Under the pieces are notes generated by a model, which searched no databases, was not told where the DNA came from, and was given only the letters and a program-made list of their open reading frames with translations. A DNA stretch of 13,484 bases from a virus. Lineage: Duplodnaviria > Heunggongvirae > Uroviricota > Caudoviricetes. The position numbers were made by a program, and so were the translations under genes. Below, in pieces: positions 19 to 13,484 of this stretch. The stretch's first letter is position 1, and every line of letters starts with the position of its first letter. The DNA is taken from the IMG/VR virus record IMGVR_UViG_2737471832_000007; one strand, written 5' to 3'.

Positions 19-813
19 TCAAAATCGGTGGAGCTGCATGACAAAGTCATCGGGCATTATCTGAACATAAAACACTATCAATAAGTTGGAGTCATTACCG
101 CTGTGTTTAACATGTTTTTTGATATATGATTTATTTTTTAATGCCCAAGAAACCGAATGCGTATATATGCTATCAAAACAATGTGATACATCTAACATCC
201 ACATCACCGAGAATCTTTTCTCAAGCTCAATAAACATCTTACTTTGAAATAGTTTATATATCCTGTTGAAACCGCCATAACTAAAATAAGAGGATGAATA
301 TTTCCTCATTAACTCATCCTTTGTTGTTTCGATATCTTCCCCTTTATATTTTTCCAAAGCATTATTTTCATATAAAAAGAAAGAGTTAGCGACCTTACGT
401 GGGTAGCGAATAGAAAAATTACTTTTTAAAGTATTTAATGTGATAACGGATGAGTATGTTTTATAAAATTCCGAATAATTAATTTGAGATCTTGGGTGAA
501 TTAAAGAAAGATGTCTTTGGCTAAAGGCATCTTTTACTATACAATAGCCAAATGGGGAGCTTTGTTTCTTCTTTTCTCGGTGGCGATCTGCGACACTAAT
601 AGAAGAGTCTAAATTAGGGTTAACTATTTTTTTTAAGAAAGAAGAAACCGGAGTAAAATGTAACAAATCATTACAAACTCTATCATATTCTGTTAAGTTT
701 ATATATAAGCCATCATTTGAAAAAATAATTGGACAATCACCGGGCAGTGTATCACATAGTAAAGCCCTGAGATAATCTTTCTTATCAAGTTTAATGTTTT
801 TCTTTATAACCAT
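19..813 (-). CDS. RT-like protein 2: RT fingers and motif A only; possibly a truncated or frameshifted second reverse transcriptase
   Basis: ATG at 813 overlaps the 3' end of the upstream RT gene by 10 nt. Residues 91-107 CIVKDAFSQRHLSLIHP resemble RT domain 1; residues 206-216 MLDVSHCFDSI (coords 166-198) match RT motif A. No motif B or C before the TGA at 19-21. AT-rich. Confidence 0.5.
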   Translation of the reverse strand: MVIKKNIKLDKKDYLRALLCDTLPGDCPIIFSNDGLYINLTEYDRVCNDLLHFTPVSSFLKKIVNPNLDSSISVADRHREKKKQSSPFGYCIVKDAFSQRHLSLIHPRSQINYSEFYKTYSSVITLNTLKSNFSIRYPRKVANSFFLYENNALEKYKGEDIETTKDELMRKYSSSYFSYGGFNRIYKLFQSKMFIELEKRFSVMWMLDVSHCFDSIYTHSVSWALKNKSYIKKHVKHSGNDSNLLIVFYVQIMPDDFVMQLHRF

Positions 814-2081
814 ATTTTTGTAATCTCAGTATAGCGCTTAAAGTTATACTTTCTATATACTCTATCCACAAAGCCTTTTCTAAAACTATTTCTTAGCAGT
901 TCTTTTTTTTGCTTCAAATTAAAAGGTTTTTTTGCAACACTATTCAAACGCCCAGTATTAGATTGCACACAATATAGCAAAAAGTCATCTAATTTTTTTA
1001 GGGATATGGAGTCAACATCTAACTTCGCATTACTGTAATAAATACCTGTACTTATCTTGCTTTTTTCTAAAGAACTTAACGATTTTATTTTGCGATTTAA
1101 ATCCCTGTTACTAGTCAAAAAAGAAATCCTGTCTAGCAATAGTTTAAAATCACCATTAATATGATAAGAGTAGAAAGACCTAGCTATTCTTGTTTTAATT
1201 TTCTTCAGGCGAGATTTAGATAAATTAACAACAACCTTTCTGTAACAGCTATTAATCTCACCATCTTTGCTCAAAGGTGTGTCTATTATAGAAAACGAGT
1301 ACCCTAGAAAGTCAAATTCATGAAGCAATTTATCCTGTTTATTTAAACCCTTACTTCTCTTTGGTATGCATGGAGATATTTTTAATTTATTTTTATTTAA
1401 AGCCAATCCCTTTGGTAATACATCTTGTATAAATTCCATAAAGGACGCTTCACATTCACAACCACTTGAAACGATTACCATATCATCTACAAATCTTGAA
1501 TAATAAAATACTTCTGGATGCCTATGAATACTATTATCAAATTGTGCCAAGTACAATTCTGATAACATAGGACTAATTTCTAACCCTCTAGGTAATCCTT
1601 TCGAAGAGTGAAGCCTTTCACACGATTTAAGATACCATTCTAGCAAATTTTTTGTATGTCTAGACAGTCGTGTTTCGTTATGTAAGAGCTGAAAAAGCTG
1701 CGGTAAATCAATTGATTCAAAGAAAGACTTTATATCCAAACGATATATTTTGAATGGAGTACCTTCTTCCAAATAAATTTTAAGCTCACTAATTATTGTA
1801 TTTCGTTGTTTGGGACGAAGCGATTCAAGGCATTTTAAATTTGCATTGCAATGTCTAAGTATTATTTTTTCCTTCAAACATGAAGCAGTGTAAACGCAGC
1901 GTCCCTTAATATTTAGTTTCTTTACACTCACACCAGAGCGAAAATTCTCATTAGCAATTAAAACGGCATCACTAATTAATGATTCTAACTCAGCAACATT
2001 ATTTTTTTTAAAATAATAAGCCTTCTCACTTTCACTTAAGTTTCGTTTAAGTGCTGCTGAAGTAAACGGCTGACGGTTCAT
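804..2081 (-). CDS. Reverse transcriptase (defence-associated UG/Abi/DRT-like), 425 aa
   Basis: ATG at 2081 with GAGGG Shine-Dalgarno. Motif A LDIKSFFESI (coords 1710-1739), motif B GLPRGLEISPMLSELYL, motif C FVDD (coords 1482-1493), FLGY motif at residues 258-261, plus a ~165-aa C-terminal extension. No retron VTG motif and no maturase domain. Confidence 0.8.
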   Translation of the reverse strand: MNRQPFTSAALKRNLSESEKAYYFKKNNVAELESLISDAVLIANENFRSGVSVKKLNIKGRCVYTASCLKEKIILRHCNANLKCLESLRPKQRNTIISELKIYLEEGTPFKIYRLDIKSFFESIDLPQLFQLLHNETRLSRHTKNLLEWYLKSCERLHSSKGLPRGLEISPMLSELYLAQFDNSIHRHPEVFYYSRFVDDMVIVSSGCECEASFMEFIQDVLPKGLALNKNKLKISPCIPKRSKGLNKQDKLLHEFDFLGYSFSIIDTPLSKDGEINSCYRKVVVNLSKSRLKKIKTRIARSFYSYHINGDFKLLLDRISFLTSNRDLNRKIKSLSSLEKSKISTGIYYSNAKLDVDSISLKKLDDFLLYCVQSNTGRLNSVAKKPFNLKQKKELLRNSFRKGFVDRVYRKYNFKRYTEITKIWL

Positions 2082-2129
2082 AATACCCTCATTAAACTAT
2101 CCTCTGTACTTTTTATAGCTCTTTCCATC

Positions 2130-2428
2130 ACTTCCCGCAATCGTATCTCCACAACAGCGACCGCTTTATATAGTAATTTTCATAACTTCGATTACAGCTC
2201 AAAACATGCGGTAACCGTGCCATAGTTATACCATTCAACGCCCTTACGCGGGCAGCCCCGCACGCCTGCCCGCTTCGCTTAACAGACTGGTTTTCATGCA
2301 TGCCATAAATCGTCTCAGATACCACCACACAAAGGTTTTCGCCTCAAAAAGGGTGCATAAGACTCATGCATTTTCATGCGCCATAGACATGCACTCATAC
2401 GCTCTCAGGCCAGCCAGGGAAAAGGTGT
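2130..2428 (-). ncRNA. Candidate structured noncoding leader or template RNA upstream of the RT gene (hypothetical)
   Basis: About 350 nt with no convincing ORF between the delta terminator and the RT start. Contains a perfect 8-bp GC stem (2248-2255 pairing 2266-2273), a CATGC-rich motif cluster and an imperfect ~19-bp direct repeat (2291-2309 and 2371-2389). Confidence 0.25.
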
Positions 2429-2455
2429 TAAAAATCCCGGTACTCGACCGGGATT
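2429..2455 (-). terminator. Intrinsic terminator of the late operon
   Basis: Stem ATCCCGG/CCGGGAT (2434-2440 pairing 2448-2454) with a 7-nt loop, followed on the minus strand by TTTT; sits ~20 nt after the delta stop. A T7 run at 2465-2471 on the plus strand may give bidirectional function. Confidence 0.5.
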
Positions 2456-2475
2456 ACGTGGGCGTTTTTTTCTAA

Positions 2476-2748
2476 TCAGACAGGAATCTGCTGACGGCTT
2501 GACAGTTTTGACGCGGAGCCATAGCGATTGAGCGTTTGCTGTTGTTTTACCGGGGGTTGTGATTTGTCTGGTTCCTGTTCATTGCGCCGGGGTTTCATGA
2601 TTATCTTATCCACACTCTCCAGTGCCGTAAATGTGCAGGAACATTCCAGATTCTGGCACTGATACCACGAGCGTTTAACTGACGGAGCTTCATAGGCTGC
2701 TGTTCTGGCGTGTGCAACTGTACCGCATTCCGGACATTTAAGTGCCAT
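2476..2748 (-). CDS. delta: Ogr/Delta-family zinc-finger late-gene transcriptional activator
   Basis: Exact C-x2-C-x22-C-x4-C spacing (CPEC...CQNLEC), the Ogr/Delta finger. ATG at 2748 with GGAG upstream; the ORF-track start at 2757 is a GTG extension. About 90 aa, single domain. Confidence 0.8.
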   Translation of the reverse strand: MALKCPECGTVAHARTAAYEAPSVKRSWYQCQNLECSCTFTALESVDKIIMKPRRNEQEPDKSQPPVKQQQTLNRYGSASKLSSRQQIPV

Positions 2749-2753
2749 TAATA

Positions 2754-3305
2754 TCACTCCTGTATATCGTTAATGTCATTCAGGCGTTGCTGAAAACGCA
2801 GATGTTGTGCCGGGGTGTAAGAACCCTGGCAATCACGAATCATCCCGGGGTCAGGCATCAAACCGGATTCATCCAGGATCTCACGATAATCCCCAGCAAT
2901 TTCAGGCGGTGTTATTGCCAGCTGGCGAACCAGAGCACTGCGTAATATACGGGACGCAACGTCAACCCCTCCGCGCCCCTTCAGGAACGGAGCCAGTGCA
3001 GATGTCAGGGCTGCCCCATTCGCCTGCATAAAATTGCTGAGAGCGGCTTCTGTGCAGGCCTCCATCAGTAAATGCTGCGAGTAAATGCATTCGCGCGCAG
3101 CACAGTTAATTTGCCATTTCAGCACATCCAGACGTTCCCGCAGTAATTCGAGCTGTCGGGCATAATCTGCTGGTTTTTCTGTGGCAGCGAGGAGAGATGT
3201 TATCTGTTGTTCAACGGCTTTTCGGCTCTCATTATGTCCGGCCCACAGAATGCGGGCATTCCGAAAACTGGTAAGTGCCTGGTCAGGCGTGCCTCGGGCC
3301 GTCAT
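2754..3305 (-). CDS. psu: Polarity suppression protein Psu homologue
   Basis: 183 aa. Segments LDVLKWQINCAARECI, FMQANGAALTSALAPFL and YTPAQHLRF resemble P4 Psu as recalled. Strong AAGGAG Shine-Dalgarno; ATGA overlap with the upstream ORF. Confidence 0.75.
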   Translation of the reverse strand: MTARGTPDQALTSFRNARILWAGHNESRKAVEQQITSLLAATEKPADYARQLELLRERLDVLKWQINCAARECIYSQHLLMEACTEAALSNFMQANGAALTSALAPFLKGRGGVDVASRILRSALVRQLAITPPEIAGDYREILDESGLMPDPGMIRDCQGSYTPAQHLRFQQRLNDINDIQE

Positions 3306-3619
3306 ACTGCTTTCTCCTTCTCAGCAAGTTCCTGACGAACCTTAATTTTATGCATAGCTGCCGGAGAGAGTTGATTACTGAAATCCAGACGCGCCGCATA
3401 ATCCGGGGCAACTCCCGCCAGTTTAAACACCGGGTCCTGCTCAGGCATCGCATCGTTAGCCAGAGCCGGTCTGGTGATATGTTTATGAATAAAGTCTTTC
3501 AGCACTGTGTCCGGGTCATTAACTGAATTCACCACACCCACAACGGCACTGGCTTCCCGGCCCATTGTGGATTTAAGCAGGCTCAGCGTCTGAATAAGCG
3601 CTTTTCCATGCGACTGCAT
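3302..3619 (-). CDS. Late-operon protein, unknown function (possibly the C-terminal part of a Sid-like protein)
   Basis: 105 aa; ATG at 3619 preceded by AGGAGG; stop overlaps the psu start (ATGA). Same reading frame as ORF 3629-4045, separated by one TAG and three codons. Confidence 0.6.
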   Translation of the reverse strand: MQSHGKALIQTLSLLKSTMGREASAVVGVVNSVNDPDTVLKDFIHKHITRPALANDAMPEQDPVFKLAGVAPDYAARLDFSNQLSPAAMHKIKVRQELAEKEKAV

Positions 3620-3628
3620 AAAATCCTC

Positions 3629-4045
3629 CTAGATTTGTTTTGCGCGAATATCCACAAGAATGTTATGCGCGTGGATATACTTTCCGGCTAATTCTGCAGC
3701 TTTCTGCGGCAAAAGTGCATTTTCGCTTTCCTGAGCCGCCAGCAGCTCATCAAAATCCTCAAGCGTTTCTCGTCCCAGCGCAATTTCCGTGCGCAGTTTT
3801 TTCATTTCCTTTGAGACCACGCCCTGACTTTCACGAAACAGCGTGCGCCACTCCTCATTCAGTGTGTTCGTCGTGGCTTCCATTTCAGCGCGACGCTGGC
3901 GGATTGTCGCAATATTATCCGCTGCCGCTTTCTGCTGACGACGTGCTTCAAGCCATGCGTTTCTGGCTGTGTTCATGGTTTCCAGTGCCCGCTGCGTTAC
4001 AGCCGGAAAAGTGGAAAGGTTGTTATTTACTGCGGTATTGTTCAT
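3629..4045 (-). CDS. First gene of the Delta-activated late operon; putative Sid-like protein
   Basis: 138 aa, helical/coiled-coil-like composition; ATG at 4045 with AGGAG 5 nt upstream; sits just downstream of two TGT-N12-ACA dyads. Position is analogous to P4 sid; identity not confirmed. Confidence 0.55.
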   Translation of the reverse strand: MNNTAVNNNLSTFPAVTQRALETMNTARNAWLEARRQQKAAADNIATIRQRRAEMEATTNTLNEEWRTLFRESQGVVSKEMKKLRTEIALGRETLEDFDELLAAQESENALLPQKAAELAGKYIHAHNILVDIRAKQI

Positions 4046-4079
4046 GACTTCTCCTGTCGGGTTGGTTCGTTACGTCAAT

Positions 4080-4135
4080 TGTGTCGTGGCTGACACAAGC
4101 ACACTATCGGTGTTCAGTGTGTGGTGGCTGGCACA
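4080..4135 (-). promoter_or_regulatory. Late promoter with two Ogr/Delta-type activator sites (TGT-N12-ACA)
   Basis: TGTgtcgtggctgacACA at 4080-4097 and TGTgtggtggctggcACA at 4118-4135, centres 38 bp apart, upstream of the ATG at 4045. Confidence 0.5.
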
Positions 4136-4223
4136 ACGGGCGCTTGCGGTTATTCAGACGTGGCTATGAAAGCCAGCCAGATAAAAATGCCCTCTGTTTC
4201 AGTCTGCTTTATGTCCCTGATGC

Positions 4224-4411
4224 GGTGGAACAGGTGAAACATGTGTTACAGCTTTGTTTTATAAGACATTTATATACACTGCACCGGTGAAACATCGCGG
4301 GTAACAAGGTGGAACAGCGGATTGGCTGGCGTTACATCTGTTCCACCTCACTATTTCAGAAGGTGGAACAGGTTCAGCCCTGTAAAATACGGTTGTTCCA
4401 CCTGTTTCACC
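4224..4411. repeat. Iteron cluster, crr/ori-like replication region
   Basis: Eight copies of GGTG(G/A)AACA: direct at 4224, 4233, 4286, 4308 and 4362; inverted (TGTT(C/T)CACC) at 4339, 4394 and 4403. Lies immediately downstream of the alpha gene; resembles the P4 TGTTCACC type-I iterons as recalled. Confidence 0.6.
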
Positions 4412-4445
4412 TGTTACCCTTAATAAATAAGACTCACGCAAAGCC

Positions 4446-7118
4446 TTAACCCGGCACCTCGCTGTTGAAGACATAGAGCCTGCGGGGATTCATCTCTGGC
4501 GGGCGAATGGTTGTCTGGAGTTTGCCATCAGTGGAGGGCAGCAGGTATCCACGATCTGCGCACAGACGCGCCACCTTGCGCGGGTCAAATCCCCTGCAGA
4601 TTTCTTTCCAGCCGGACGGCATGACATAGAACGTAGTGACAGCTTCCGTGCCCTGCGCGGTACTGCCTTTCTCCACCCTGCGCCAGCCCACCATATTGCC
4701 GGGGCGGTTGCGCTCGTCATACCAGTCTGCAAAGCGGCTGTACTGATTCGCGGTGAAGAAACTGCGAACCTGCTCCAGTGCGGCGATATCTTCCTGATTG
4801 GCGGTGTGCCCGCGATCTTTCAGCCATGCGTTCAGGCAGACGCGGGTTGCCCGCAGTGCTTCACCCTCAGGCCAGCCGGTGATACCCAGACGGGTTGCCA
4901 GTTCACCTGCCATCGCCACCAGAGCAAAGCGGTTCACAGCCCGGCCCACCTGATTGCCTGCATCTTTCGGAGTCAGGGCGGCAGCATATTCCTTCATCAG
5001 CGATTTTGCCTGTGCCGTTAGTCCGTTAAGATCAGCGGTCAGTGCTTTCAGCCACTCCCGGAACGGCGAACCGTAGTAGCAGGACGTGGCCCATTCAAGA
5101 TGCTCTGCCAGAGCCTTGCCGCTGTCGAAGCCGTGCAGCTCCTCAAAAACGCCAAACTTCCCGGAATCGCTGGGGATCTGGATCATCCTGACTTCCATCC
5201 CGGCAAAAGTACGCTCACCGGCCTTTGCCGCATGTTCGGTCAGAGACAACTCGCCAGTTGAAAAGAACAACAGGCGCCACTGCTTACGGGTACGCAGCTC
5301 ACCGTCCGTACCGGCACGGCCCTTGCCCTGACCGTTTGCCAGCATGTAGGCGATATTGCCTGCCTCGCGTCCGTCAACTTCCCGGATCTCATCAAGCATC
5401 ATGGCGGCATCGTTGCGGCGGCTGGCGCATCCCTCCAGCGCGTTGCCGGTGGCCCGCCATGTCTGCCAGTAGTCAGGCCCGCCGCAGACGGAGGTTGCCG
5501 CTTTCATGGTGGTGGTCTTACCGTCTGTCGATTCCCCTTTGAGGTGGTAGCCGCCGCCGTCCATACCAACCAGCCGTAACAGTGGTGCAGCAAAGGCCAG
5601 GCTGACAGCAAATGCCACGCGGGAGTTGCCGGTACAGTAGCGGGATACATGCTCCCGCCATTCCTCTGTTGTGCCCGACACGCGGAAATCACGCCCCTGC
5701 ACGGAAGTGGTCTGGAGAATGACACCCTCTGCACCTTCACCGCTGACCTCATCCTGCAGGACGTAAACCTGACCATGCCAGCCAGTACGACTGACGCAGG
5801 TCACGCGGCGTTCCGGTTTACACAGTGAGATATATTCCATCAGGCGTGCGCGTGCCTCACCGGTGGTGCTGATATAAGACAGCCCGTTAACCAGCAGTAC
5901 CCGGCGCAGTTCCTCACCACTGCCGCTCAGCATTTCCATCGGCATCGCCCAGCGGCGACACTCACCCCACGTATCTTCCCATTCCAGCAGTCGTCCGAAG
6001 TTACCGCCATCGGCATCGCAGGTGATTGCCGTCACGCGCAGCGGGCTGCATATTTTGACGTTCTGGATCTCCGTCTCACCGTTGCGCTGTACCTGCTTTT
6101 CATACCAGAGATATTCCTGGGTAAGACGGAACCCGTGCGGCAGTTGCGTGCGGCCTTCCCCGCACAGTACCAGACCGTTGCGAAAGGCTTCACGGGCACG
6201 GGTAATACCGTGCTCCCGATGAAAGTCATTCCAGTCAGCCTTAATCTCTCCTGGTGGCAGCGTCATCCAGCCGCCAACAGCTTTTGCCGCCCGTTCAGCA
6301 AAGGCTCTGCCGGGATTCTCACCTCCGTCCTGAAAATCGTTATCACCGGCGATGATAATTTTTACCTCAGGCCAGCGTGCCCGCAGCGACTGCGCCACAT
6401 TGGGCAGGTTGCCCGCAGATATGGCAGCCACTACGCATCCGGCAGTGAGCTGACTTACCGTCAGCGCCGTAGCGTAACCTTCGGTAATCACCACCTGTAC
6501 CGGTGGTTCAGACGGTAACGGGCTGAGCGACACAAACGCGCCTTTCATCGTGCTGCCGGGCAGTATGCTTTTTTCACCCGTCGGGGCGATAAGCTGTGCA
6601 CCAGTCACGGCTCCGGTGTTGGTCGTGAGTGGTAACAGCAGGGAACCGGCAGGAAAATCCTTACCGCTGATATGCTGCACGCTTCCGGTCAGAGAGGCCG
6701 GGTATCCGGCGAACCCTTTTCCTGTCAGATAGGCGCTTTCTCCCGTGTGGCTCTCTTTCATCAGCGCCGCCACGGTAAGACCCATGTCGCGTTTAGGGGC
6801 TTTTTGTCTGGCAGGCTTAACAGGCAGTTCCTGCACATCCGGCACATTAAGCACCTGCGCCACCTCCTGCGCAGCCTTTCTGATGCTGTAACCGGTTACG
6901 AGCTTAACCAGATCCAGACCGTCACCATTGCCACACTGGCTGCAGATCCACGTCCCGCGCCCGTCAAGGTCATCAAGGCGAAAACGATCCTTGCCCCCAC
7001 ATTTCGGGCAGGGACCGTGCCTGCCGTTTTCAGGTACATCAATACGCAGCATCTGGAGAATAACGGGCCATTTCCCCCGTGCGGCGGCTGAAATCTGCGT
7101 AACCGTCTGTATTGTCAT
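4446..7118 (-). CDS. alpha: Alpha-type DNA primase-helicase (zinc-binding N-terminus, primase, D5-like helicase)
   Basis: 890 aa. N-terminal CPKCGG...CSQCG zinc motif, GKT Walker-A-like motif, and overall resemblance to P4 alpha. ATG at 7118 in an ATGA overlap with the upstream ORF. Confidence 0.85.
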   Translation of the reverse strand: MTIQTVTQISAAARGKWPVILQMLRIDVPENGRHGPCPKCGGKDRFRLDDLDGRGTWICSQCGNGDGLDLVKLVTGYSIRKAAQEVAQVLNVPDVQELPVKPARQKAPKRDMGLTVAALMKESHTGESAYLTGKGFAGYPASLTGSVQHISGKDFPAGSLLLPLTTNTGAVTGAQLIAPTGEKSILPGSTMKGAFVSLSPLPSEPPVQVVITEGYATALTVSQLTAGCVVAAISAGNLPNVAQSLRARWPEVKIIIAGDNDFQDGGENPGRAFAERAAKAVGGWMTLPPGEIKADWNDFHREHGITRAREAFRNGLVLCGEGRTQLPHGFRLTQEYLWYEKQVQRNGETEIQNVKICSPLRVTAITCDADGGNFGRLLEWEDTWGECRRWAMPMEMLSGSGEELRRVLLVNGLSYISTTGEARARLMEYISLCKPERRVTCVSRTGWHGQVYVLQDEVSGEGAEGVILQTTSVQGRDFRVSGTTEEWREHVSRYCTGNSRVAFAVSLAFAAPLLRLVGMDGGGYHLKGESTDGKTTTMKAATSVCGGPDYWQTWRATGNALEGCASRRNDAAMMLDEIREVDGREAGNIAYMLANGQGKGRAGTDGELRTRKQWRLLFFSTGELSLTEHAAKAGERTFAGMEVRMIQIPSDSGKFGVFEELHGFDSGKALAEHLEWATSCYYGSPFREWLKALTADLNGLTAQAKSLMKEYAAALTPKDAGNQVGRAVNRFALVAMAGELATRLGITGWPEGEALRATRVCLNAWLKDRGHTANQEDIAALEQVRSFFTANQYSRFADWYDERNRPGNMVGWRRVEKGSTAQGTEAVTTFYVMPSGWKEICRGFDPRKVARLCADRGYLLPSTDGKLQTTIRPPEMNPRRLYVFNSEVPG

Positions 7119-7498
7119 ACTTCCCCCTGATACAACGTCACACCGGTACTGCAGAAGTCATCAAAGGCCGCCGGAAGCGTGCGGTACATCTCCGCCATCA
7201 CTTCACAGCCGCGCGCGGTCAGTACCGGCGGCGCGGTCAGCAGTGACGGCTCCAGCATGTCAGTCAGCAGTGCCAGCGCGGCAGCGGCGCCCTGTGCTTC
7301 GCCGTACTCGTTAATCAGTACGCACTCGATATGCAGCGCAATGGCCATTTCAATACGCTCCACCGTCAGGCTGTGCGGACCATACTGATCACTGCCAGTT
7401 TCGTTCAGCATTTTCTGCCGCCATGCTGAAGCAATAGCCCGCCGGTAAAGCGCGGTGGTCATTTCTGCCGGGAAAATGGAAACCTGCGGCTGGTTCAT
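7115..7498 (-). CDS. Early-operon hypothetical protein
   Basis: 127 aa; ATGA overlaps at both ends (coupled to the upstream ORF and to alpha). Confidence 0.55.
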   Translation of the reverse strand: MNQPQVSIFPAEMTTALYRRAIASAWRQKMLNETGSDQYGPHSLTVERIEMAIALHIECVLINEYGEAQGAAAALALLTDMLEPSLLTAPPVLTARGCEVMAEMYRTLPAAFDDFCSTGVTLYQGEV

Positions 7499-7779
7499 CT
7501 GGCACCTCCTTCAATCAGTGCGCAGCTGTGTGCAATATCCGTCAAATCTGCCAGCAGGTACTCCATCAGCGCGGCGACACCATGCGCACAGCCAGTGTCC
7601 AGTGCTCCGGCCTGAGACGGGTATTCAGAAAAGAGAAGCTGGAGCATGTCGCAGGCATTTCTTGCGCGGGTCAGCTTTCCGAAACTGTCCTCTGACAACC
7701 CATAGGCAAAAACACCGGTATTGTGTTTTTCAGGCAAAGTGTGGCCCTGAGCACCGTTGTGCCCGTTTGAAATATTCAT
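7495..7779 (-). CDS. Early-operon small protein (possibly epsilon-like, by position and size)
   Basis: 94 aa; ATG at 7779 with GGAG upstream. Assignment is positional only. Confidence 0.5.
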   Translation of the reverse strand: MNISNGHNGAQGHTLPEKHNTGVFAYGLSEDSFGKLTRARNACDMLQLLFSEYPSQAGALDTGCAHGVAALMEYLLADLTDIAHSCALIEGGAR

Positions 7780-7810
7780 CGTGGATTACTCCGTTTTCAG
7801 CGGTATTGTG

Positions 7811-8170
7811 TCAGAGAAACTTTGAATAGTGACCGTCATCAGGCTCAGCAGAACGCCATATGCTACGCTCCCGCCAGCGGATAAATAGCACAGACGGATG
7901 CAGTGTCAGCGGGCCGGAACCACTACCGCCTGCAGGAGCTGGTGCAGGCTTAAAGAGCGGTACATCAAACAGGCGCGTATATCGCTGTTCAAACCATGCC
8001 AGAGGGCAGGAAGAAAGCTGGTTGTCGCTGTCATGACGTATCAGCACTTCACAGCTGAATTCAGGATTAACCAGCGCCACAGAGGGCGAGGCTTCTATTA
8101 ATCGGATAATCGTGACCGTCCAGCCACGTTCATGCTGCCAGCGTTCGCCGGGATGCGGATAATTACGCAT
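7811..8170 (-). CDS. Early-operon hypothetical protein
   Basis: ATG at 8170 preceded by GGAGG (MRNYPHPG...). The ORF-track start at 8200 is a non-ATG extension. Confidence 0.55.
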   Translation of the reverse strand: MRNYPHPGERWQHERGWTVTIIRLIEASPSVALVNPEFSCEVLIRHDSDNQLSSCPLAWFEQRYTRLFDVPLFKPAPAPAGGSGSGPLTLHPSVLFIRWRERSIWRSAEPDDGHYSKFL

Positions 8171-8339
8171 GTTCACCTCCGCAGGGAATGCGCCCGGCAA
8201 AGCTCAGTACATAGTCCGGGGCAAGTCTGCGCCGCGCTGACCGCTCGTTATCTGCGGTGATCCTTAACATCACAGGACGGGCATTGCGTTGACTGCGGTT
8301 GATCGCCGCAAATAACCAGGTACACTTCTGTTTAGCCAT
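8163..8339 (-). CDS. Small first ORF of the early operon (58 aa), unknown function
   Basis: ATG at 8339 with AAGAGG upstream; TAA at 8163-8165 overlaps the next gene's ATG (ATGCGTAA). Below the ORF-track size cutoff. Confidence 0.4.
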   Translation of the reverse strand: MAKQKCTWLFAAINRSQRNARPVMLRITADNERSARRRLAPDYVLSFAGRIPCGGEHA

Positions 8340-8367
8340 CTTCGTTACCTCTTATAACGGTTGGTTA

Positions 8368-8402
8368 AATGCCCGATTTGTGTTCCCGCACAATCGGGCA
8401 TT
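8368..8402 (-). promoter_or_regulatory. Long stem-loop in the early-operon leader
   Basis: AATGCCCGATT (8368-8378) pairs perfectly with AATCGGGCATT (8392-8402), with additional inner pairing; lies between the divergent promoter region and the first early ORF. Confidence 0.35.
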
Positions 8403-8428
8403 GCTTTTACAAGCGAACTATACTTACA

Positions 8429-8474
8429 ATGGTAATTACCATGTAGTCATCATATTCTAGGGTAATTACCATGT
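8429..8474. promoter_or_regulatory. Two palindromic operator sites in the divergent promoter region
   Basis: Perfect 14-bp palindrome ATGGTAATTACCAT at 8429-8442; second copy GGTAATTACCATGT at 8461-8474 overlaps the RHH start codon. Spacing is 30 bp. Confidence 0.5.
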
Positions 8475-8644
8475 CAACACCACAAGAGAAACGTTCTCCA
8501 CCATTCCAAATGCGTCTTACCGACGATTTTAGGTTGCAACTCGAAAACGAAATGCGCAAAGATGGAGATAGCGCGTTGGCAACTTGGATTAAAAGAATTT
8601 TACGCAAAGAACTCCAATCACGCGGGATTGACCCTAAAGGCTAA
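8471..8644 (+). CDS. Arc/MetJ-type ribbon-helix-helix DNA-binding protein (57 aa)
   Basis: FQMRLTDDFRLQLENEMRKDGDSALATWIKRIL matches the Arc-like RHH pattern. ATG at 8471 with AGGGT upstream, TAA at 8642-8644. Not in the ORF track because it is under 60 aa. Confidence 0.55.
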   Translation: MSTPQEKRSPPFQMRLTDDFRLQLENEMRKDGDSALATWIKRILRKELQSRGIDPKG

Positions 8645-8676
8645 TCAGTTAAATATTACTAACTATCAATTAAGGC

Positions 8677-8967
8677 TTAGGGAGTAGGTGATAATCTATT
8701 CCCTTTATTAATTGCTCTTGCCTTATTTCTCATCCCCTCAAACTGTTGACCTGAGTTTTCTTCAAACCCATCTCGCCACTTATAATAATCAGCAGCGCGC
8801 CATCGTGACATCCGACCTATTTTTATAGGTTTTGGAAAGCGATTCAGAGAAATCAATCGATAAATCCATTTATCACTTAATAAACAATCGGAAGTAATAA
8901 ACTTCATATCGATCAGAGAATCCATTGAAGGTCGTTGCAAAGTAGTATTATCATGTTTAGATAACAT
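8677..8967 (-). CDS. AlpA-family phage regulatory protein / Vis-like DNA-binding protein
   Basis: WIYRLISLNRFPKPIKIGRMSRWRAADYYKW matches the AlpA HTH and FPKPIK signature. ATG at 8967 with GGAG upstream; an internal start at 8925 or 8907 is possible. AT-rich. Confidence 0.7.
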   Translation of the reverse strand: MLSKHDNTTLQRPSMDSLIDMKFITSDCLLSDKWIYRLISLNRFPKPIKIGRMSRWRAADYYKWRDGFEENSGQQFEGMRNKARAINKGNRLSPTP

Positions 8968-9092
8968 TCATCATTCTCCGTTTATCTAAGTCTATTGGCT
9001 TCAACACGGAAAATTAAAACATAGGTTATAAATGAGAAAAATGTGACTAATGAAAAAAATTCAAAATCATTAGCCACAACAATTGTTAATAT

Positions 9093-9917
9093 TTAGTTAA
9101 ACTTAATGTTTTTCATGCAACTACGTAGCAAACTAACAACAGTATCATAGCTCAAAGGCGGTTCTCCGGTCTTAGGCCAGAACTCACTGGCATGTTGAAA
9201 AAGATAATCAGCTATCGCTGCTGGACTCTCTCTTCTTAGCCTCATATCACGATGATAGAGCGAAATAATAGCCATGAGTATTTCAGCTCGAGGAACAGCA
9301 TGTTTTTGTTTTTGCGCCTCAGATTGTGATTTATATTTATTGGCGTTTTTTATCCGCTTTTGTTCGCATAAGACTATATCAATGAATTTTTGAATCTGTA
9401 CCTTTGTAATCCACAAAACCTCAAAAAGATAATAATTTTCTTTTTCATCATAATTTACATAAAGAATTACCTTACAATTTATATTAGGCGTACCCGCCAG
9501 TAGAAAATGAATAGGCCAGGAATCCGGTTGCCCCTCATGCTTAACTAACAGATCTTTATATTCATAATCAACAGCCCATAAACCGGATATGAAGCATCGA
9601 ATAAAACCATTTTTATCAATTAAATTATCTTCATCAGGGATTCTTATAGAACTTAAGTCTGACAACATAATATTGCCATTTCTATCTCGTGGTAAATATT
9701 TCAGATTAGATAAGAACTCATCTATTTGACCATCAATCTTCAAACCACATGAAACATCATACTCATCATCATGGAATTCCATGCATAGCTCTACATCTCG
9801 TTCTCTGGCAAACCAGAGTATATCCTTTTCACTACAACCAATTTTTTCTGAAGCTTCATCCAACTGGTAGTAATCTCTGAGCAGAGAATCAGTATTATTA
9901 ATTTTTAAAATATTCAT
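9093..9917 (-). CDS. Unknown 274-aa protein translationally coupled to the integrase
   Basis: ATG at 9917 overlaps the int stop (ATGA). AT-rich; possible N-terminal HTH-like stretch (EKIGCSEKDILWFARE). No recognisable family. Confidence 0.6.
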   Translation of the reverse strand: MNILKINNTDSLLRDYYQLDEASEKIGCSEKDILWFARERDVELCMEFHDDEYDVSCGLKIDGQIDEFLSNLKYLPRDRNGNIMLSDLSSIRIPDEDNLIDKNGFIRCFISGLWAVDYEYKDLLVKHEGQPDSWPIHFLLAGTPNINCKVILYVNYDEKENYYLFEVLWITKVQIQKFIDIVLCEQKRIKNANKYKSQSEAQKQKHAVPRAEILMAIISLYHRDMRLRRESPAAIADYLFQHASEFWPKTGEPPLSYDTVVSLLRSCMKNIKFN

Positions 9918-11104
9918 TTATGAGTACCAATTTGCTCAGATAAATAATTAGCATACCATTGCATCATTTCTCTTCTCCCTTCGAGATATTGGGCATGGTT
10001 ATAAATTCCACGAATAGAGTTTTTGTCCGAATGAGCAAGCTGGGTTTCAATCCAAGCGCTGTTAAATCCTTTCTCATGTAGGATTGTACTCATCGTATGC
10101 CTGAAACCATGCCCCGTAACACGCCCTGCATATCCAATACGTTTAAACACCTGATTAATGCTTGCTTCACTCATAAATTTGCTGGGATCGTTGCGTCCAG
10201 GGAACATCAGCGGGTAGTTCCCAGTTAGTTCTTTCAAACTTTTGAGATGGGATAATGCTTGTTTTGACAACGGGACAATATGGCTCCTACGCATTTTCAT
10301 ACGTTCTTTTGGGATCTCCCACACCGCATTATCAAAATCCACCTCTCGCCACTCACCTGCTCGTAGTTCTCCAGTTCGTAGACCTGTCAGGATAAGTAAA
10401 TGCGCCCCCAACAATACAATTGGACTTCCTGAATAAGAATTAAGGGCATTAAAGAACTCCGGTAGTTCGTTGGCTTTGAGGAATGGATAGTGGACTGCTT
10501 CATGTCCTTGCATCGCACTGGCAAGATCCGGTGCCGGATTGTAGATTGCCCTACCCGTTACGATGGCATAGCGAAAAACTTCACCGCATCGCTGACGGAC
10601 TTTCTTCGCTTTCTCCATAGCGCCTCGAGCTTCTATCAACCTCAGAACTTCAAGCAGTTCAAGGGGCTGAATATCAGCTATAGGTCTGTGCCCAATATGC
10701 GGGAAAATGTCTTTCTCGAATGCCTCAATGATGTCGGAAGCATAGCCCTCAGACCATTTGGGTGATTTCATTTTGTGCCACTCTAACGCCACTTCTCTGA
10801 ATGGGTTAAGTGTCTCACTCGCTGCATTTAAAGCCTGCTTTTTGGCTTTTTTGACTTCGCCGGGATCTTCACCTGCTGCGAGTAGTTTCTTCGCGTCTTC
10901 TCGTTTTTGTCTGGCATCAGCAAGTGTGACTGTTGGATAAACACCAAAGGACAATCGTTTCTCTTTACCAGCAAAACGGTATTTCATACGCCAGTAACGC
11001 GAGCCATTAGGTTCGACCTGAAGGTATAGGCCACCTCCATCAAACAGCTTGTAGCTCTTCTCTTTTCCTTTCGCAGCTTCAACCTTGCGGGCATTCAGCA
11101 TCAT
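9914..11104 (-). CDS. int: P4-type tyrosine integrase
   Basis: N-terminal arm-binding signature (KLFDGGGLYLQVEPNGSRYWRMKYRFAGKEKRLSFGVYP); catalytic HGFRHT and GIYNHAQY motifs. Likely start is the ATG at 11104 (MMLNARK...); the ORF-track start at 11173 is a TTG extension. Confidence 0.9.
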   Translation of the reverse strand: MMLNARKVEAAKGKEKSYKLFDGGGLYLQVEPNGSRYWRMKYRFAGKEKRLSFGVYPTVTLADARQKREDAKKLLAAGEDPGEVKKAKKQALNAASETLNPFREVALEWHKMKSPKWSEGYASDIIEAFEKDIFPHIGHRPIADIQPLELLEVLRLIEARGAMEKAKKVRQRCGEVFRYAIVTGRAIYNPAPDLASAMQGHEAVHYPFLKANELPEFFNALNSYSGSPIVLLGAHLLILTGLRTGELRAGEWREVDFDNAVWEIPKERMKMRRSHIVPLSKQALSHLKSLKELTGNYPLMFPGRNDPSKFMSEASINQVFKRIGYAGRVTGHGFRHTMSTILHEKGFNSAWIETQLAHSDKNSIRGIYNHAQYLEGRREMMQWYANYLSEQIGTHK

Positions 11105-11180
11105 TGGGGGCACATTTCCTAGATCGAACAGAACATGCCCCTGATTGTGCCCCCAACCGCGTGTTGATTTCAAGAGACAA

Positions 11181-11254
11181 GGGTTGACCTCAAACGTATG
11201 AAAACAACGTAATATATATGTTTTTAAATGATTTTGTTGATGTGGGTTGACTTG
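11181..11254. repeat. Direct repeats GGGTTGAC(C/T)T between int and the att core (candidate Int arm-type sites)
   Basis: GGGTTGACCT at 11181-11190 and GGGTTGACTT at 11244-11253. Confidence 0.3.
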
Positions 11255-11268
11255 GGAAAACTAGGTGA

Positions 11269-11314
11269 TGGTGCCGATAATAGGAGTCGAACCTACGACC
11301 TTCGCATTACGAAT
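11269..11314 (-). tRNA. Partial tRNA-Thr(CGU): 3'-terminal 46 nt only (att core, not a functional tRNA)
   Basis: Reverse complement reads ATTCGTAATGCGAAGGTCGTAGGTTCGACTCCTATTATCGGCACCA: anticodon loop with CGT, T-arm, acceptor 3' strand and CCA. The 5' D-arm and acceptor half are absent upstream. Confidence 0.7.
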
Positions 11315-11618
11315 TATAAGAATCCGCTTCTAATTCAAAGCATTACCCCATCAACACTGCGCTCACAAGTCCCACCACATCAAAACATGTAAAGCCTTGC
11401 AAGCCATTGCTAGGCCTTATGTGTCTCAGTTTTGTCCCACTACGACCCGCATAACCAATAAGAAGATTGCAGTGATGTCAAACGACACAGCAGCCTTCTT
11501 TTCCTTCATACTTTCCCCACCCAGCATGCATACCTTCTACCATAACTGTAGTGAATGTCTGTTATGAGCGAGGAGCGGAAGTTGGAATGCATACTTAAAT
11601 CGAGCAATTTTGAGTTAT

Positions 11619-11626
11619 GGGGGGGG
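11619..11626. repeat. Homopolymeric G8 tract upstream of the 384-aa gene
   Basis: Eight consecutive G at 11619-11626, about 30 bp upstream of a TATGAT -10-like hexamer (11655-11660). Confidence 0.6.
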
Positions 11627-11707
11627 CTGGTCAACCTACTGAATTGTTTTTGCCTATGATAACGGTCACAATCAACCTCTAAGTGTGCTGATTTGAAAGT
11701 GATTTCC

Positions 11708-12847
11708 ATGAAGATGACCAAGGCAGATTTTGGTGTAACTATTGATGATACTTTAATAACTGATTTTCGAGATGTGGTTAATGAAGGGGAGTTTGCTTAC
11801 AGCTACTTCATAAACAGAAATGGTAAAAACCAGTTCAGCCCTATCTGTTCGTGCATGGATTGGATAAGCGTTTCTGTTCGCAATCTGATGAACTTCCCTG
11901 AGCTGTCGGAAGATATTGATGTCAAGGCCATGCAGGTTTACTCCCTTATATCATCTATTGATATTGCTGTGGAGGCGTTGCAGCAGCTTCACCGCATCAT
12001 TGAGAGTGATGATAAGTTAGCGAGGTGGCCTTTCAAGAAATCAACGAATGTCTTTAAGAATAAAACGCCCTATCTTTCACATGAGGATGATGACGCATAC
12101 TTTAAGAGTATTCGAGCTATCTTTGGTGCTCACCCTACAAATCTTAAAAATAGTGATGGTGAGCGACTGTTTGCAAGCTGGCCTCATTTTCATGCTTTCA
12201 ATGAAAATGATTTCACTATAAGCCTTTACAACAACACGTCAGGGAAAGATGATGTTATTTTCGGCATTAAATTCGATGAGCTAATTACATATATTGAAGA
12301 TAGGTATAAATATCTAACAAGCCTAAAGGGTTCCGTAATAGCAATCCGTATAAAACATTACAGCACCCTATCCAAACAGATTATACCGTCTACTGATAAC
12401 ATTCATGCTGAGTTAAAGTTGCTTCTTTCAGAAGTTGCGGTGCGAGGTGATAACGATTATTACCGAATGGAAGTGGAAGAGTTAATAAAGTTGTTCGAGG
12501 GGAATGTTAAAGAGGCACATCTCAAGGATGAAGCTGACGTATTTTTAAGTAAACTACATCCAATTGCAGTAGAGATTAGATATAATCTTCAGGAAATGAA
12601 TATTGAGGATTTAGCAACTAAGCATGGCGTGTTGATTTCAACACTTCCGAAAAATGCCCTGCATTACGTTCTTCAGAAAATGTTTACTTGGCTCCACTCT
12701 GATAGATATGACCCAATGGGTGGCTTTTACTTGGACAAGTTAAATGAATATTCAGGCGGGCGATACAATTTTTGTTCTGAGGATGATGACAGTACAACTC
12801 TATTGAAGCTCCGGATGATGTTGCATTGGTATCATCAACAAAAATAG
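11708..12847 (+). CDS. Orphan 379/384-aa protein of unknown function (possible Abi/HEPN-like; unconfirmed)
   Basis: Long AT-rich ORF ending TAG at 12845-12847. ATG at 11708; the ORF-track start at 11693 is TTG. Contains an R-x5-H stretch (RAIFGAH). No family recognised. Confidence 0.6.
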   Translation: MKMTKADFGVTIDDTLITDFRDVVNEGEFAYSYFINRNGKNQFSPICSCMDWISVSVRNLMNFPELSEDIDVKAMQVYSLISSIDIAVEALQQLHRIIESDDKLARWPFKKSTNVFKNKTPYLSHEDDDAYFKSIRAIFGAHPTNLKNSDGERLFASWPHFHAFNENDFTISLYNNTSGKDDVIFGIKFDELITYIEDRYKYLTSLKGSVIAIRIKHYSTLSKQIIPSTDNIHAELKLLLSEVAVRGDNDYYRMEVEELIKLFEGNVKEAHLKDEADVFLSKLHPIAVEIRYNLQEMNIEDLATKHGVLISTLPKNALHYVLQKMFTWLHSDRYDPMGGFYLDKLNEYSGGRYNFCSEDDDSTTLLKLRMMLHWYHQQK

Positions 12848-13144
12848 GCTTAGCCACGAAAACAAGCAATACAGTTGGAAGTTCGTGTGACCTATGCGCT
12901 AGGTATTCTGAGACGACAGTGTGACCTGCTCCCTGTTGATTAACATAGGCTGACACTAGCAACGTCCTCTACTGGCACATAGCAGCCCCAGAGACAGTGG
13001 TGTAAAGTCATGGAGGGTCGGTGGGAGGATATTCAGTTTCATTCATGCCGAAATACGGTAAAATCTATAATAGATGGAAATCATTCAATACTCGCACTAA
13101 AGTCCACCATCCAGCCGCAGCAAGTTCTTGCATACGACGTGTCT

Positions 13145-13172
13145 GCGGGTTCAACTCCCGCCAGCTCCACCA
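13145..13172 (+). other. tmRNA (ssrA) 3'-end-like fragment; possible second att core
   Basis: GCGGGTTCAACTCCCGCCAGCTCCACCA matches the 3' terminal T-arm and acceptor of enterobacterial tmRNA as recalled. No tmRNA 5' domain or tag reading frame upstream. Confidence 0.45.
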
Positions 13173-13302
13173 ATCATGATTGGACGGTGTAAGGACAACA
13201 CCAATAAAAACAGGAAGTTAGCAGTCTCAGCAGGACACCAACCAGACGGTGAGCAGACAAAAAAGGATACGCAAAGGAGCCGCGGCTCCCAAGTGACATG
13301 AA

Positions 13303-13325
13303 AGCCCGCATCTGCGGGCTTTTTC
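13303..13325 (+). terminator. Intrinsic terminator
   Basis: GCCCGC (13304-13309), loop ATCT, GCGGGC (13314-13319), followed by TTTTT. Confidence 0.55.
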
Positions 13326-13484
13326 GTTTCATCTGCAAAAATGTCTATACATCAGCTGCCACAAACGGAACAACAGCCTTTATTGATGTAAGCGTCGTCT
13401 CAGCACCGTCTGGCAGATCCTGAAATTCCTGAGAGAATAGTGGACACCAAATATGGTGGACGCTATCCATGAAATCATTAACCG

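Follow-up and report, generated by a model that had tools for sequence, protein, structure and literature searches.

A copy of the ssrA 3′ end inside a thrW-type lambdoid prophage: a probable orphaned half of a phage attachment site

Introduction

The question raised by this locus is why the last nucleotides of the Escherichia coli tmRNA gene, ssrA, stand by themselves in a stretch of viral DNA, and whether they mark a place at which a mobile element integrated. The DNA is a record from IMG/VR (IMGVR_UViG_2737471832_000007) of 13,484 nucleotides, and it is this whole stretch that is referred to here as the window. An initial annotation, made from the sequence of the window, had pointed to a 28-mer resembling the tmRNA 3′ end without the rest of ssrA, had described it as a sequence of the type that integrases targeting ssrA employ as an att core, and had taken its position within 2 kb of a tRNA-Thr core as a sign of successive integration or decay events, or of a junction of islands with different site specificities.

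A tmRNA Gene End without a tmRNA Gene

The sequence GCGGGTTCAACTCCCGCCAGCTCCACCA, at positions 13145–13172 on the plus strand, occurs once in the window and is identical, at 28 of 28 positions, to the last 28 nucleotides of the annotated ssrA gene of E. coli Ecol_732 (tmRNA at 5666–6028 of locus L004, with the corresponding core at 6001–6028). When the window was shuffled 200 times with its dinucleotides preserved, none of the shuffles contained a match to the 28-mer, with up to 3 mismatches allowed. The 28-mer genuinely reproduces the terminal part of the E. coli tmRNA gene, and its description as an att core of the ssrA type is borne out as well: in the record of phage LLS this sequence is labelled “tmRNA pseudogene / attP”, the ssrA prophage of Ecol_732 has copies at both of its ends, and alignment to ssrA and to the attP sites of ssrA phages matched the 28-mer to both the Ecol_732 gene end and the LLS attP.

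The remainder of the gene was looked for in several ways. Multiple alignment with ssrA revealed no likeness to the left of 13145, ARAGORN found no tRNA or tmRNA gene in the window, and an Rfam scan of the window returned nothing at gathering score, while a sensitive scan matched tmRNA itself over a 17-nt fragment only (16.3 bits against a cut-off of 47). The 28-mer has no complete tRNA-like domain with a tag reading frame that either ARAGORN or RF00023 would recognize as a tmRNA gene. The fragment could in principle encode a tRNA-like 3′ piece of a functional RNA, such as a two-piece (permuted) tmRNA, and the sensitive scan did yield a weak match to the permuted-tmRNA model at 13145–13282 (19.7 bits against a gathering score of 47, E = 0.28). 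Such a role has virtually no chance of being real, given a score so far under 47, the silence of ARAGORN, a fold across the left edge of the core with a z-score of 0.07, and the many copies elsewhere that carry deletions in the T-arm and the acceptor strand. An intact or permuted tmRNA or tRNA gene at this position is ruled out, since ARAGORN and Rfam were negative or far below threshold; the alignment agrees, and the description of a gene end without its gene stands.

The Element Boundary at thrW

The tRNA-Thr core is equally real. It is an exact (46/46) copy of the 3′ end of thrW at 11269–11314 on the minus strand, it is the attP of phage phi458, and in E. coli strains 5CRE51 and 50EVAW the same 46-mer separates a prophage from an island. 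To its left in the window lies a P4-like satellite (100–11314) that encodes a TOPRIM/DUF927 primase, Psu, Ogr/Delta, DUF5375, an Icd-like protein, and a thrW-targeting tyrosine integrase (9914..11104, minus strand; taken from the ORF list, annotated beside intact thrW in strain WCHEC025970, with coordinates transferred from locus L003). In most E. coli this satellite adjoins intact thrW next to proA, and homology to those copies stops at 11314; in the window its integrase-side att consists only of the 46-nt thrW fragment. The att-distal end of the satellite carries the reverse-transcriptase defence genes DRT3a and DRT3b, and its tandem partner in the window is a lambdoid prophage, not one of the P2 type. 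In 5CRE51 this internal thrW core is occupied by another island, which has HsdM, an ORC/CDC6 ATPase and a related integrase.

What lies to the right of the thrW core can be read from close relatives. Strain 5CRE51 matches 11232–13389 at 99.4% identity, 50EVAW matches in part, and phi458, a spontaneously induced, particle-forming phage (PMC9701743) whose description makes no mention of att sites, carries 11315–13151 at 99.8% and then diverges. The DNA next to the thrW attP (11315..11707, plus strand, 99.8% identical to phi458) is of b-region type, and 11391–11583 within it is homologous to lambda 27319–27505, with lambda, HK629 and HK630 at 83.7%. Both complete genomes, 5CRE51 and 50EVAW, have proA and intact thrW first, then integrase, a complete prophage, tail fibres, invertase, cargo and the ssrA-like segment; one moron gene and the thrW 46-mer come next, ahead of a second island that bears an integrase and the far chromosomal flank. 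This order identifies the thrW 46-mer as the internal att of a tandem array of prophage and satellite. Judged from sequence comparison, then, the true element junction in the window is the thrW 46-mer, with the prophage on the right, the satellite on the left, and both of them specific for thrW. The prophage context of the window is read from the 5CRE51 and phi458 segments, which are 99.4–99.8% identical to it, because the source genome lies outside the set of complete genomes. The ssrA 28-mer lies 1.8 kb inside the thrW-integrated prophage.

These contexts bear directly on the idea that the 28-mer is itself a live boundary, that is, a displaced attR or attL of an element integrated here at ssrA specificity, so that ssrA-specific and thrW-specific islands would abut. 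A perfect ssrA 3′ end would be expected of such a site, and the DNA to its right does follow the attR at the true ssrA locus in K-12, Sakai and Ecol_732. However, the homologous segment in 5CRE51 and 50EVAW sits within one prophage that is ended by copies of thrW, at the locus running from proA and thrW to paoD; no ssrA-type integrase is found nearby in either strain; the unit also occurs inside prophages at prfC and proL; and the DNA to the left of the core is carried by phi458. A live boundary is largely refuted by these observations already, and we regard it as highly improbable. Successive integration at this spot, as first proposed, is contradicted by the same arrangement, since the segment is internal to a single complete thrW prophage and phi458 carries the phage side up to the joint. 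The proposal of a junction between islands of different site specificities fares better in part: exchange between elements of the two specificities did take place, but the 28-mer is not a junction, as the thrW-bounded prophages of 5CRE51 and 50EVAW make clear. The suggested search for a second copy and an associated integrase found one copy of the 28-mer in the window and no ssrA-type integrase near the segment in 5CRE51 or 50EVAW.

The 28-mer resembles the displaced tDNA fragments and tandem arrays recognized by the Islander approach (PMC4383910) in being the 3′ part of a tDNA, such as attP sites carry and islands leave at their ends; the thrW 46-mer of the window, for its part, is a textbook case of an att internal to a tandem array. 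Unlike those fragments, the ssrA 28-mer bounds no island, has neither an ssrA gene nor an ssrA-type integrase with it, and lies inside an element that uses another tDNA. The Islander signature of an island with its integrase between an intact tDNA and a fragment in matching orientation was not found for it in 5CRE51 or 50EVAW, where the native ssrA locus is elsewhere in the chromosome and the fragment is at the proA-thrW locus.

An inversion or recombination between thrW and ssrA through the orphan block was also considered, prompted by the RnlAB cargo that the ssrA-adjacent prophage of Ecol_732 and the thrW prophage of 5CRE51 have in common. It is ruled out by the far end of the Ecol_732 prophage, which has its own integrase, a 33-nt ssrA copy and a normal glaH-gab flank, and by the normal proA-thrW and paoD flanks in 5CRE51 and 50EVAW.

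The Cargo-Side Arm and Its Counterparts in ssrA-Integrating Phages

Homology to the ssrA locus does not end with the 28-mer. It runs on for about 160 nt to the right, a stretch (13173–13334, plus strand) that the initial annotation had overlooked and that we call the right arm. With 13040–13340 as the query, thousands of E. coli genomes gave a match at their native ssrA that begins exactly at 13145 and reaches about 13330; in K-12 and Sakai it sits past the end of CP4-57 or Sp17. A right arm following ssrA or an attR was matched in 5,418 of 5,426 complete E. coli genomes. The possibility that the right arm is a conserved enterobacterial flank of ssrA was rejected, with 0 matches among species-representative genomes. 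Within the arm, an intrinsic terminator with its T-run lies at 13303–13326 (fold z = −3.7), and all copies of the arm diverge directly past this terminator, into a variable cargo slot. The arm also contains a GGAGCCGCGGCTCC palindrome in addition to the strong terminator (13173–13334 in the window, about 5990–6180 in L048, 7001–7169 in L006), and in most strains it would serve as the 3′ trailer and terminator of the ssrA transcript. Sub-threshold Rfam matches to isrK and RsmY in the arm are weak and probably reflect the terminator only.

The phages that integrate at ssrA provide the clearest comparison. Phage LLS (PQ299149), which was isolated on K-12 and on which a literature search found no paper, has the order xis, int and gene 31, then a 39-nt “tmRNA pseudogene”/attP, then the right arm, then cargo, the invertase Fin and tail fibres. 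In Ecol_732, the ssrA prophage is bordered at one end by ssrA and the right arm; its other end comprises int, an AAA ATPase, Dam and a 33-nt copy of ssrA, with a second right arm ahead of glaH. Citrobacter phage phiNP begins with right-arm sequence. The layouts of LLS and of the Ecol_732 prophage identify 13145–13334 as the core and cargo-side arm of an ssrA-type lambdoid attP. The core is identical to the ssrA 3′ end at all 28 positions, and the arm is homologous to that of known ssrA phages (13173–13324 is 90.6% identical to the LLS attP arm, and 13145–13389 is 98.8% identical to Ecol_732). As in the attP of LLS, of the Ecol_732 prophage, of Sp17-type prophages and of phiNP, an ssrA block is followed by the same arm of about 160 nt and then by variable cargo, invertase and tail fibres.

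The differences from these phages are all on the other side. Unlike them, the window has no cognate integrase, no excisionase and no integrase-side arm next to the core; on the left it has the terminator element of the b region, then a moron gene and a thrW-type attP. Neither the integrase-side arm nor an adjacent cognate integrase or excisionase was found in the window, where the integrase nearest to the 28-mer is the thrW-type one of the satellite, 2 kb off, and the left flank of LLS is unrelated to that of the window. The length of ssrA identity differs too, being 28 nt in the window compared with 39 nt, with mismatches, in LLS and 33 nt in the Ecol_732 attR. Because the integrase-side arm and the integrase are absent, the unit of the window falls outside the family of ssrA-phage attP sites proper, and taken together with the account given below it would, in all probability, derive from such a site and work like one.

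Since the right arm is found past ssrA or attR in nearly all E. coli, the source of the block could have been a chromosomal or island attR junction instead of a phage attP. In that case aberrant excision or recombination would have copied 13145–13334, either out of the chromosome, as the ssrA end with its flank, or out of the attR junction of an island. The 5,418 genomes mentioned above are in keeping with such a capture, as are the second right arm past the attR of the Ecol_732 prophage and a number of orphan cores with a ΔT or with ΔC and ΔT, which resemble the attR fragments of islands. Against it stand the LLS attP, which consists of core and right arm, and phiNP, which starts with the right arm; the contiguity of the arm with phage cargo, invertase and tail-fibre modules (K-12 being without tail-fibre genes); and the presence of the arm past ssrA in 0 representative genomes of other species. 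We consider a captured host or junction sequence unlikely, and it is in any case not mutually exclusive with an origin from a phage attP.

The Left Arm and the Joint

The DNA to the left of the core tells a different part of the history. Positions 13058–13148 (plus strand) are a conserved lambdoid b-region element, the left arm, which ends in a hairpin of the form CCGCAG...CTGCGG (13115–13148, plus strand) with the ssrA core directly after it in the window. Homologs of the left arm are found in lambda (24162–24256, between ea31 and ea47), in HK97 (directly after sib and before tfa), and in phiP27, mEp460 and phi458. The possibility that the left arm is the integrase-side arm of an ssrA attP is ruled out, since it is present without an ssrA core in lambda, HK97, phiP27 and phi458. 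A copy that is 78% identical lies between ecpE and ykgJ in strain 50EVAW (L002, 226–312); it is intergenic and outside any annotated prophage.

In HK97 and phi458 the hairpin is followed by TTTCATTT or a TTTTAT T-run, with similar sequences in other phages, whereas in the window the T-run has been replaced by the GTTCAAC of the ssrA core. The hairpin folds well in the phages (z = −2.7 in HK97, −15.1 kcal/mol in phi458), and the joint of the window folds no better than its shuffles (z = 0.07), so that the GC-rich hairpin plus T-run of an intrinsic terminator is not found at the left-arm hairpin of the window. Homology to the phages that carry the left arm extends 4–12 nt into what would otherwise be called the core, and in the multiple alignment the joint lies within a 9-nt microhomology, GCGG(G/T)TTCA, which corresponds in position to the T-stem and T-loop of the tmRNA gene. 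The first 9 nt of the core, GCGGGTTCA, are common to the window, 5CRE51, 50EVAW and ssrA; CREC-591 and many contigs read GCGGTTTCAAC at the joint and are HK97-like at the single differing base, and CREC-591 and many other copies carry GCGGTTTCA, as HK97 does. Phage phi458 has the left arm of the window and then runs through TTTTATATAA into a truncated invertase, without an ssrA core. The alignment, read with the HK97 and ssrA sequences, indicates that the orphan block was fused to the b-region element at this 9-nt microhomology. The combination of left arm, core and right arm occurs in 0 of the isolated phages in the collection searched, and an exact-pattern scan for the joint in species-representative genomes was empty.

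Overall, the origin that we favour with considerable confidence is that 13145–13334 is the orphaned half of an attP from an ssrA-integrating lambda-like phage, now inside a mosaic prophage of the thrW type. The observed identities and contexts, the observed position of the joint and the observed drift of the core (described below) are the ground on which this account is built. The orphan half would consist of the core, identical to ssrA, together with the arm that faces cargo and tail fibres, and its integrase side would have been replaced when the core was joined, within GCGG(G/T)TTCA, to the 3′ half of a terminator-type hairpin. Past the hairpin element would come the moron gene and the thrW-type attP, giving a mosaic lambdoid prophage that integrates at thrW and leaving the fossil ssrA core 1.8 kb inside the att-distal end of the prophage. 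The thrW copy at the prophage end would later have been used by the P4-like satellite, which would yield the tandem seen in the window. Two routes to the joint can be envisioned: illegitimate recombination at the microhomology, or integrase-mediated insertion of an ssrA-type phage, with the terminator serving as its secondary site and homologous exchange coming afterwards. Mosaic joints in the b region of lambdoid phages and secondary att sites of lambda-type integrases are established phage genetics, and the joint of the window is like those mosaic joints in having a short sequence common to a linker or terminator and an att core, in the moron-rich region between attP and tail fibres. The 28-mer is a case of ordinary lambdoid phage mosaicism.

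Variable Slots on Either Side

The unit is flanked by two slots of changing content. The moron gene of the window (11708..12847, plus strand) corresponds to Orf54 of phi458 and is annotated as a CDS in both 5CRE51 and phi458; it encodes 379 aa from its ATG or 384 aa from a TTG at 11693, and the 384-aa ORF had 0 matches in Pfam, PADLOC and PHROG. Elsewhere the same slot, between the thrW attP and the left arm, holds DinI, a different 314-aa gene or two other genes, or is empty, and the distance separating the thrW core from the joint varies between 391 and 3,132 bp in related prophages.

Past the right-arm terminator, the cargo slot holds RnlAB in 5CRE51 and Ecol_732, a SRAP pseudogene with an AAA ATPase in 50EVAW and CREC-591, a type II restriction-modification system in PSJ-23 and the ypjA autotransporter in K-12 (the slots compared are L001 16600–18900, L002 23000–26300, L049 22500–25200, L006 7175–11755 and L028 9273–11475). 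Genes for DUF4236 and DUF2971 proteins are also among its contents. The slot is a hotspot; an invertase gene or remnant comes next in most strains, and tail-fibre genes are present in all but K-12. In the window the slot is cut off about 55 nt past the terminator by the terminal repeat (GTAAGCG...) of an IS66-family element, whose end occupies 13389..13484 on the plus strand; many genomes have IS66-like ends, accompanied by tnpA, that match it at 98%. At 13389, where IS66 starts, homology to 5CRE51 and Ecol_732 ends, and the window itself finishes within this element, 300 nt beyond the core. The IS66 end is not part of the att relic; it bounds it.

Distribution and Decay of the Orphan Units

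A unit covering at least 80% of 13040–13340 is present in 414 of 5,426 complete E. coli genomes. Complete prophages that enclose it lie at thrW (50EVAW and 5CRE51), between yjjG and prfC (CREC-591) and at proL (23CRST004, in which the core has decayed and the right arm is internally deleted). We took 30 viral contigs from IMG/VR in which only the flanks were fixed and the core was left free. The core was altered, by substitutions or by deletions of 1–5 nt, in 19 of these, and column diversity over the 30 contigs was 0.154 in the core, 0.103 in the left arm and 0.138 in the right arm. The unit is a relic and not an island junction, because it is found inside prophages at thrW, prfC and proL, because its core drifts as its flanks do, and because 19 of the 30 cores are altered. 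From this pattern of variation we infer that the relic is not kept by selection.

Some of the changes recur. Single-base deletions of the type CAGC-CCACCA and ACT-CCGCC are present in the orphan cores of L031, L042, L043 and L047, and the same deletions are typical of the attR fragments of P4-family ssrA islands (K-12, L076, L078 and L083; also L028 at 9090–9130 and L006 at about 6990–7010). The ΔT deletion in attR fragments of ssrA islands has been noted before (PMC4383910). The deleted orphan cores may be footprints of past island traffic, or may indicate a different origin for those copies.

An Apparently Occupied Orphan Core

One contig suggests that a relic of this kind may still be used. 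In the IMG/VR draft contig L022, the left arm is present together with an orphan core that carries the orphan-specific T, and about 185 bp further along lies a P4-family integrase in which all three Pfam domains are present. Psu, Ogr/Delta, Ash and DUF5375 come after it, a gene set that identifies a P4-like satellite. The integrase of this satellite is 39% identical to that of the window's satellite, and 421 complete genomes have the same integrase region adjoining their native ssrA, where the match begins at GCGG. The unoccupied counterpart is found in PSJ-23, at the thrW locus, whose left side is 100% identical to that of L022 over 2,268 nt and then continues into the right arm and the restriction-modification cargo; the two diverge exactly after CCA. 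A breakpoint at the core end together with an unoccupied allele, the combination expected of a secondary attB, was seen for this one L022 junction only, on a draft contig that ends inside the satellite and so displays a single junction. A second contig from the same genome was searched for and none was found. Two further candidates for occupied orphan cores, H176 and H178, were rejected as ordinary tandem arrays at the true ssrA locus.

The comparison suggests that in L022 an ssrA-targeting satellite inserted site-specifically into the orphan core, and points to residual attB activity; on this one case, the orphan relic is probably still recognizable by ssrA-specific integrases. If secondary-site use is what occurred, the far junction of the L022 satellite would probably have a core copy of the TTCAAACTCCGCCAGC-CCACCA type.

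It is a further step to suppose that the orphan core is maintained inside the prophage as a secondary attB, a docking site for ssrA-specific satellites and phages. The L022 arrangement of left arm, orphan core and P4-family integrase with satellite genes is what such a site would produce, as are the 421 genomes with the same integrase region beside native ssrA and the parting of PSJ-23 from L022 exactly after CCA over a common left side of 2,268 nt; in addition, the neighbouring thrW 46-mer has been used in just this way in the window. However, of the 28 exact-core orphan sites 1 is occupied and the other 27 are empty, all 16 orphan-core copies from metagenomes are unoccupied, and the lone junction, on its draft contig, was not found in metagenomes or complete genomes. 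The core also drifts at least as fast as its flanks, contrary to upkeep by selection. Maintenance as a docking site is, on balance, rather unlikely, if slightly less so than the capture of host DNA considered above.

A further reading is that fossil t(m)RNA att cores at the att-distal ends of lambdoid prophages act as working landing pads for satellites. The end of the window's prophage would then offer two such sites, of which the thrW 46-mer has been filled by the satellite carrying DRT3 and the ssrA 28-mer is empty in the window and apparently filled in L022 by an ssrA-specific P4-like satellite; the ΔT and ΔC cores that match island attR fragments would be footprints of repeated traffic. 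We put this forward as speculation, with perhaps a little more in its favour than a maintained docking site. The arrangement would be like that of helper-embedded PICIs, in that the L022 satellite sits within a prophage remnant and not at its chromosomal target. Helper-embedded PICIs target prophage late genes through a dedicated integrase clade (PMC10111431). Unlike them, L022 has a standard ssrA-specific P4-family integrase that apparently used a fossil of its normal target, and the prophage that hosts it is not a helper of the P2 type.

Implications

A perfect 3′ fragment of a tDNA need not mark the boundary of an island. Island-finding methods based on pairing tDNAs with their fragments could place boundaries wrongly where a fragment like the one described here is carried within a prophage of another specificity, as it is in about 8% of complete E. 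coli genomes. The joint of the window also provides an example, at the level of single bases, of lambdoid phages swapping integration modules at a short common sequence. If fossil cores do act as landing pads, the scars left in prophages would widen the range of integration sites open to satellites and defence islands and would place these beside phages. Should the single occupied case be confirmed, relics of this kind would stay competent for integration, adding docking sites for satellites and carriers of defence genes beside prophages.
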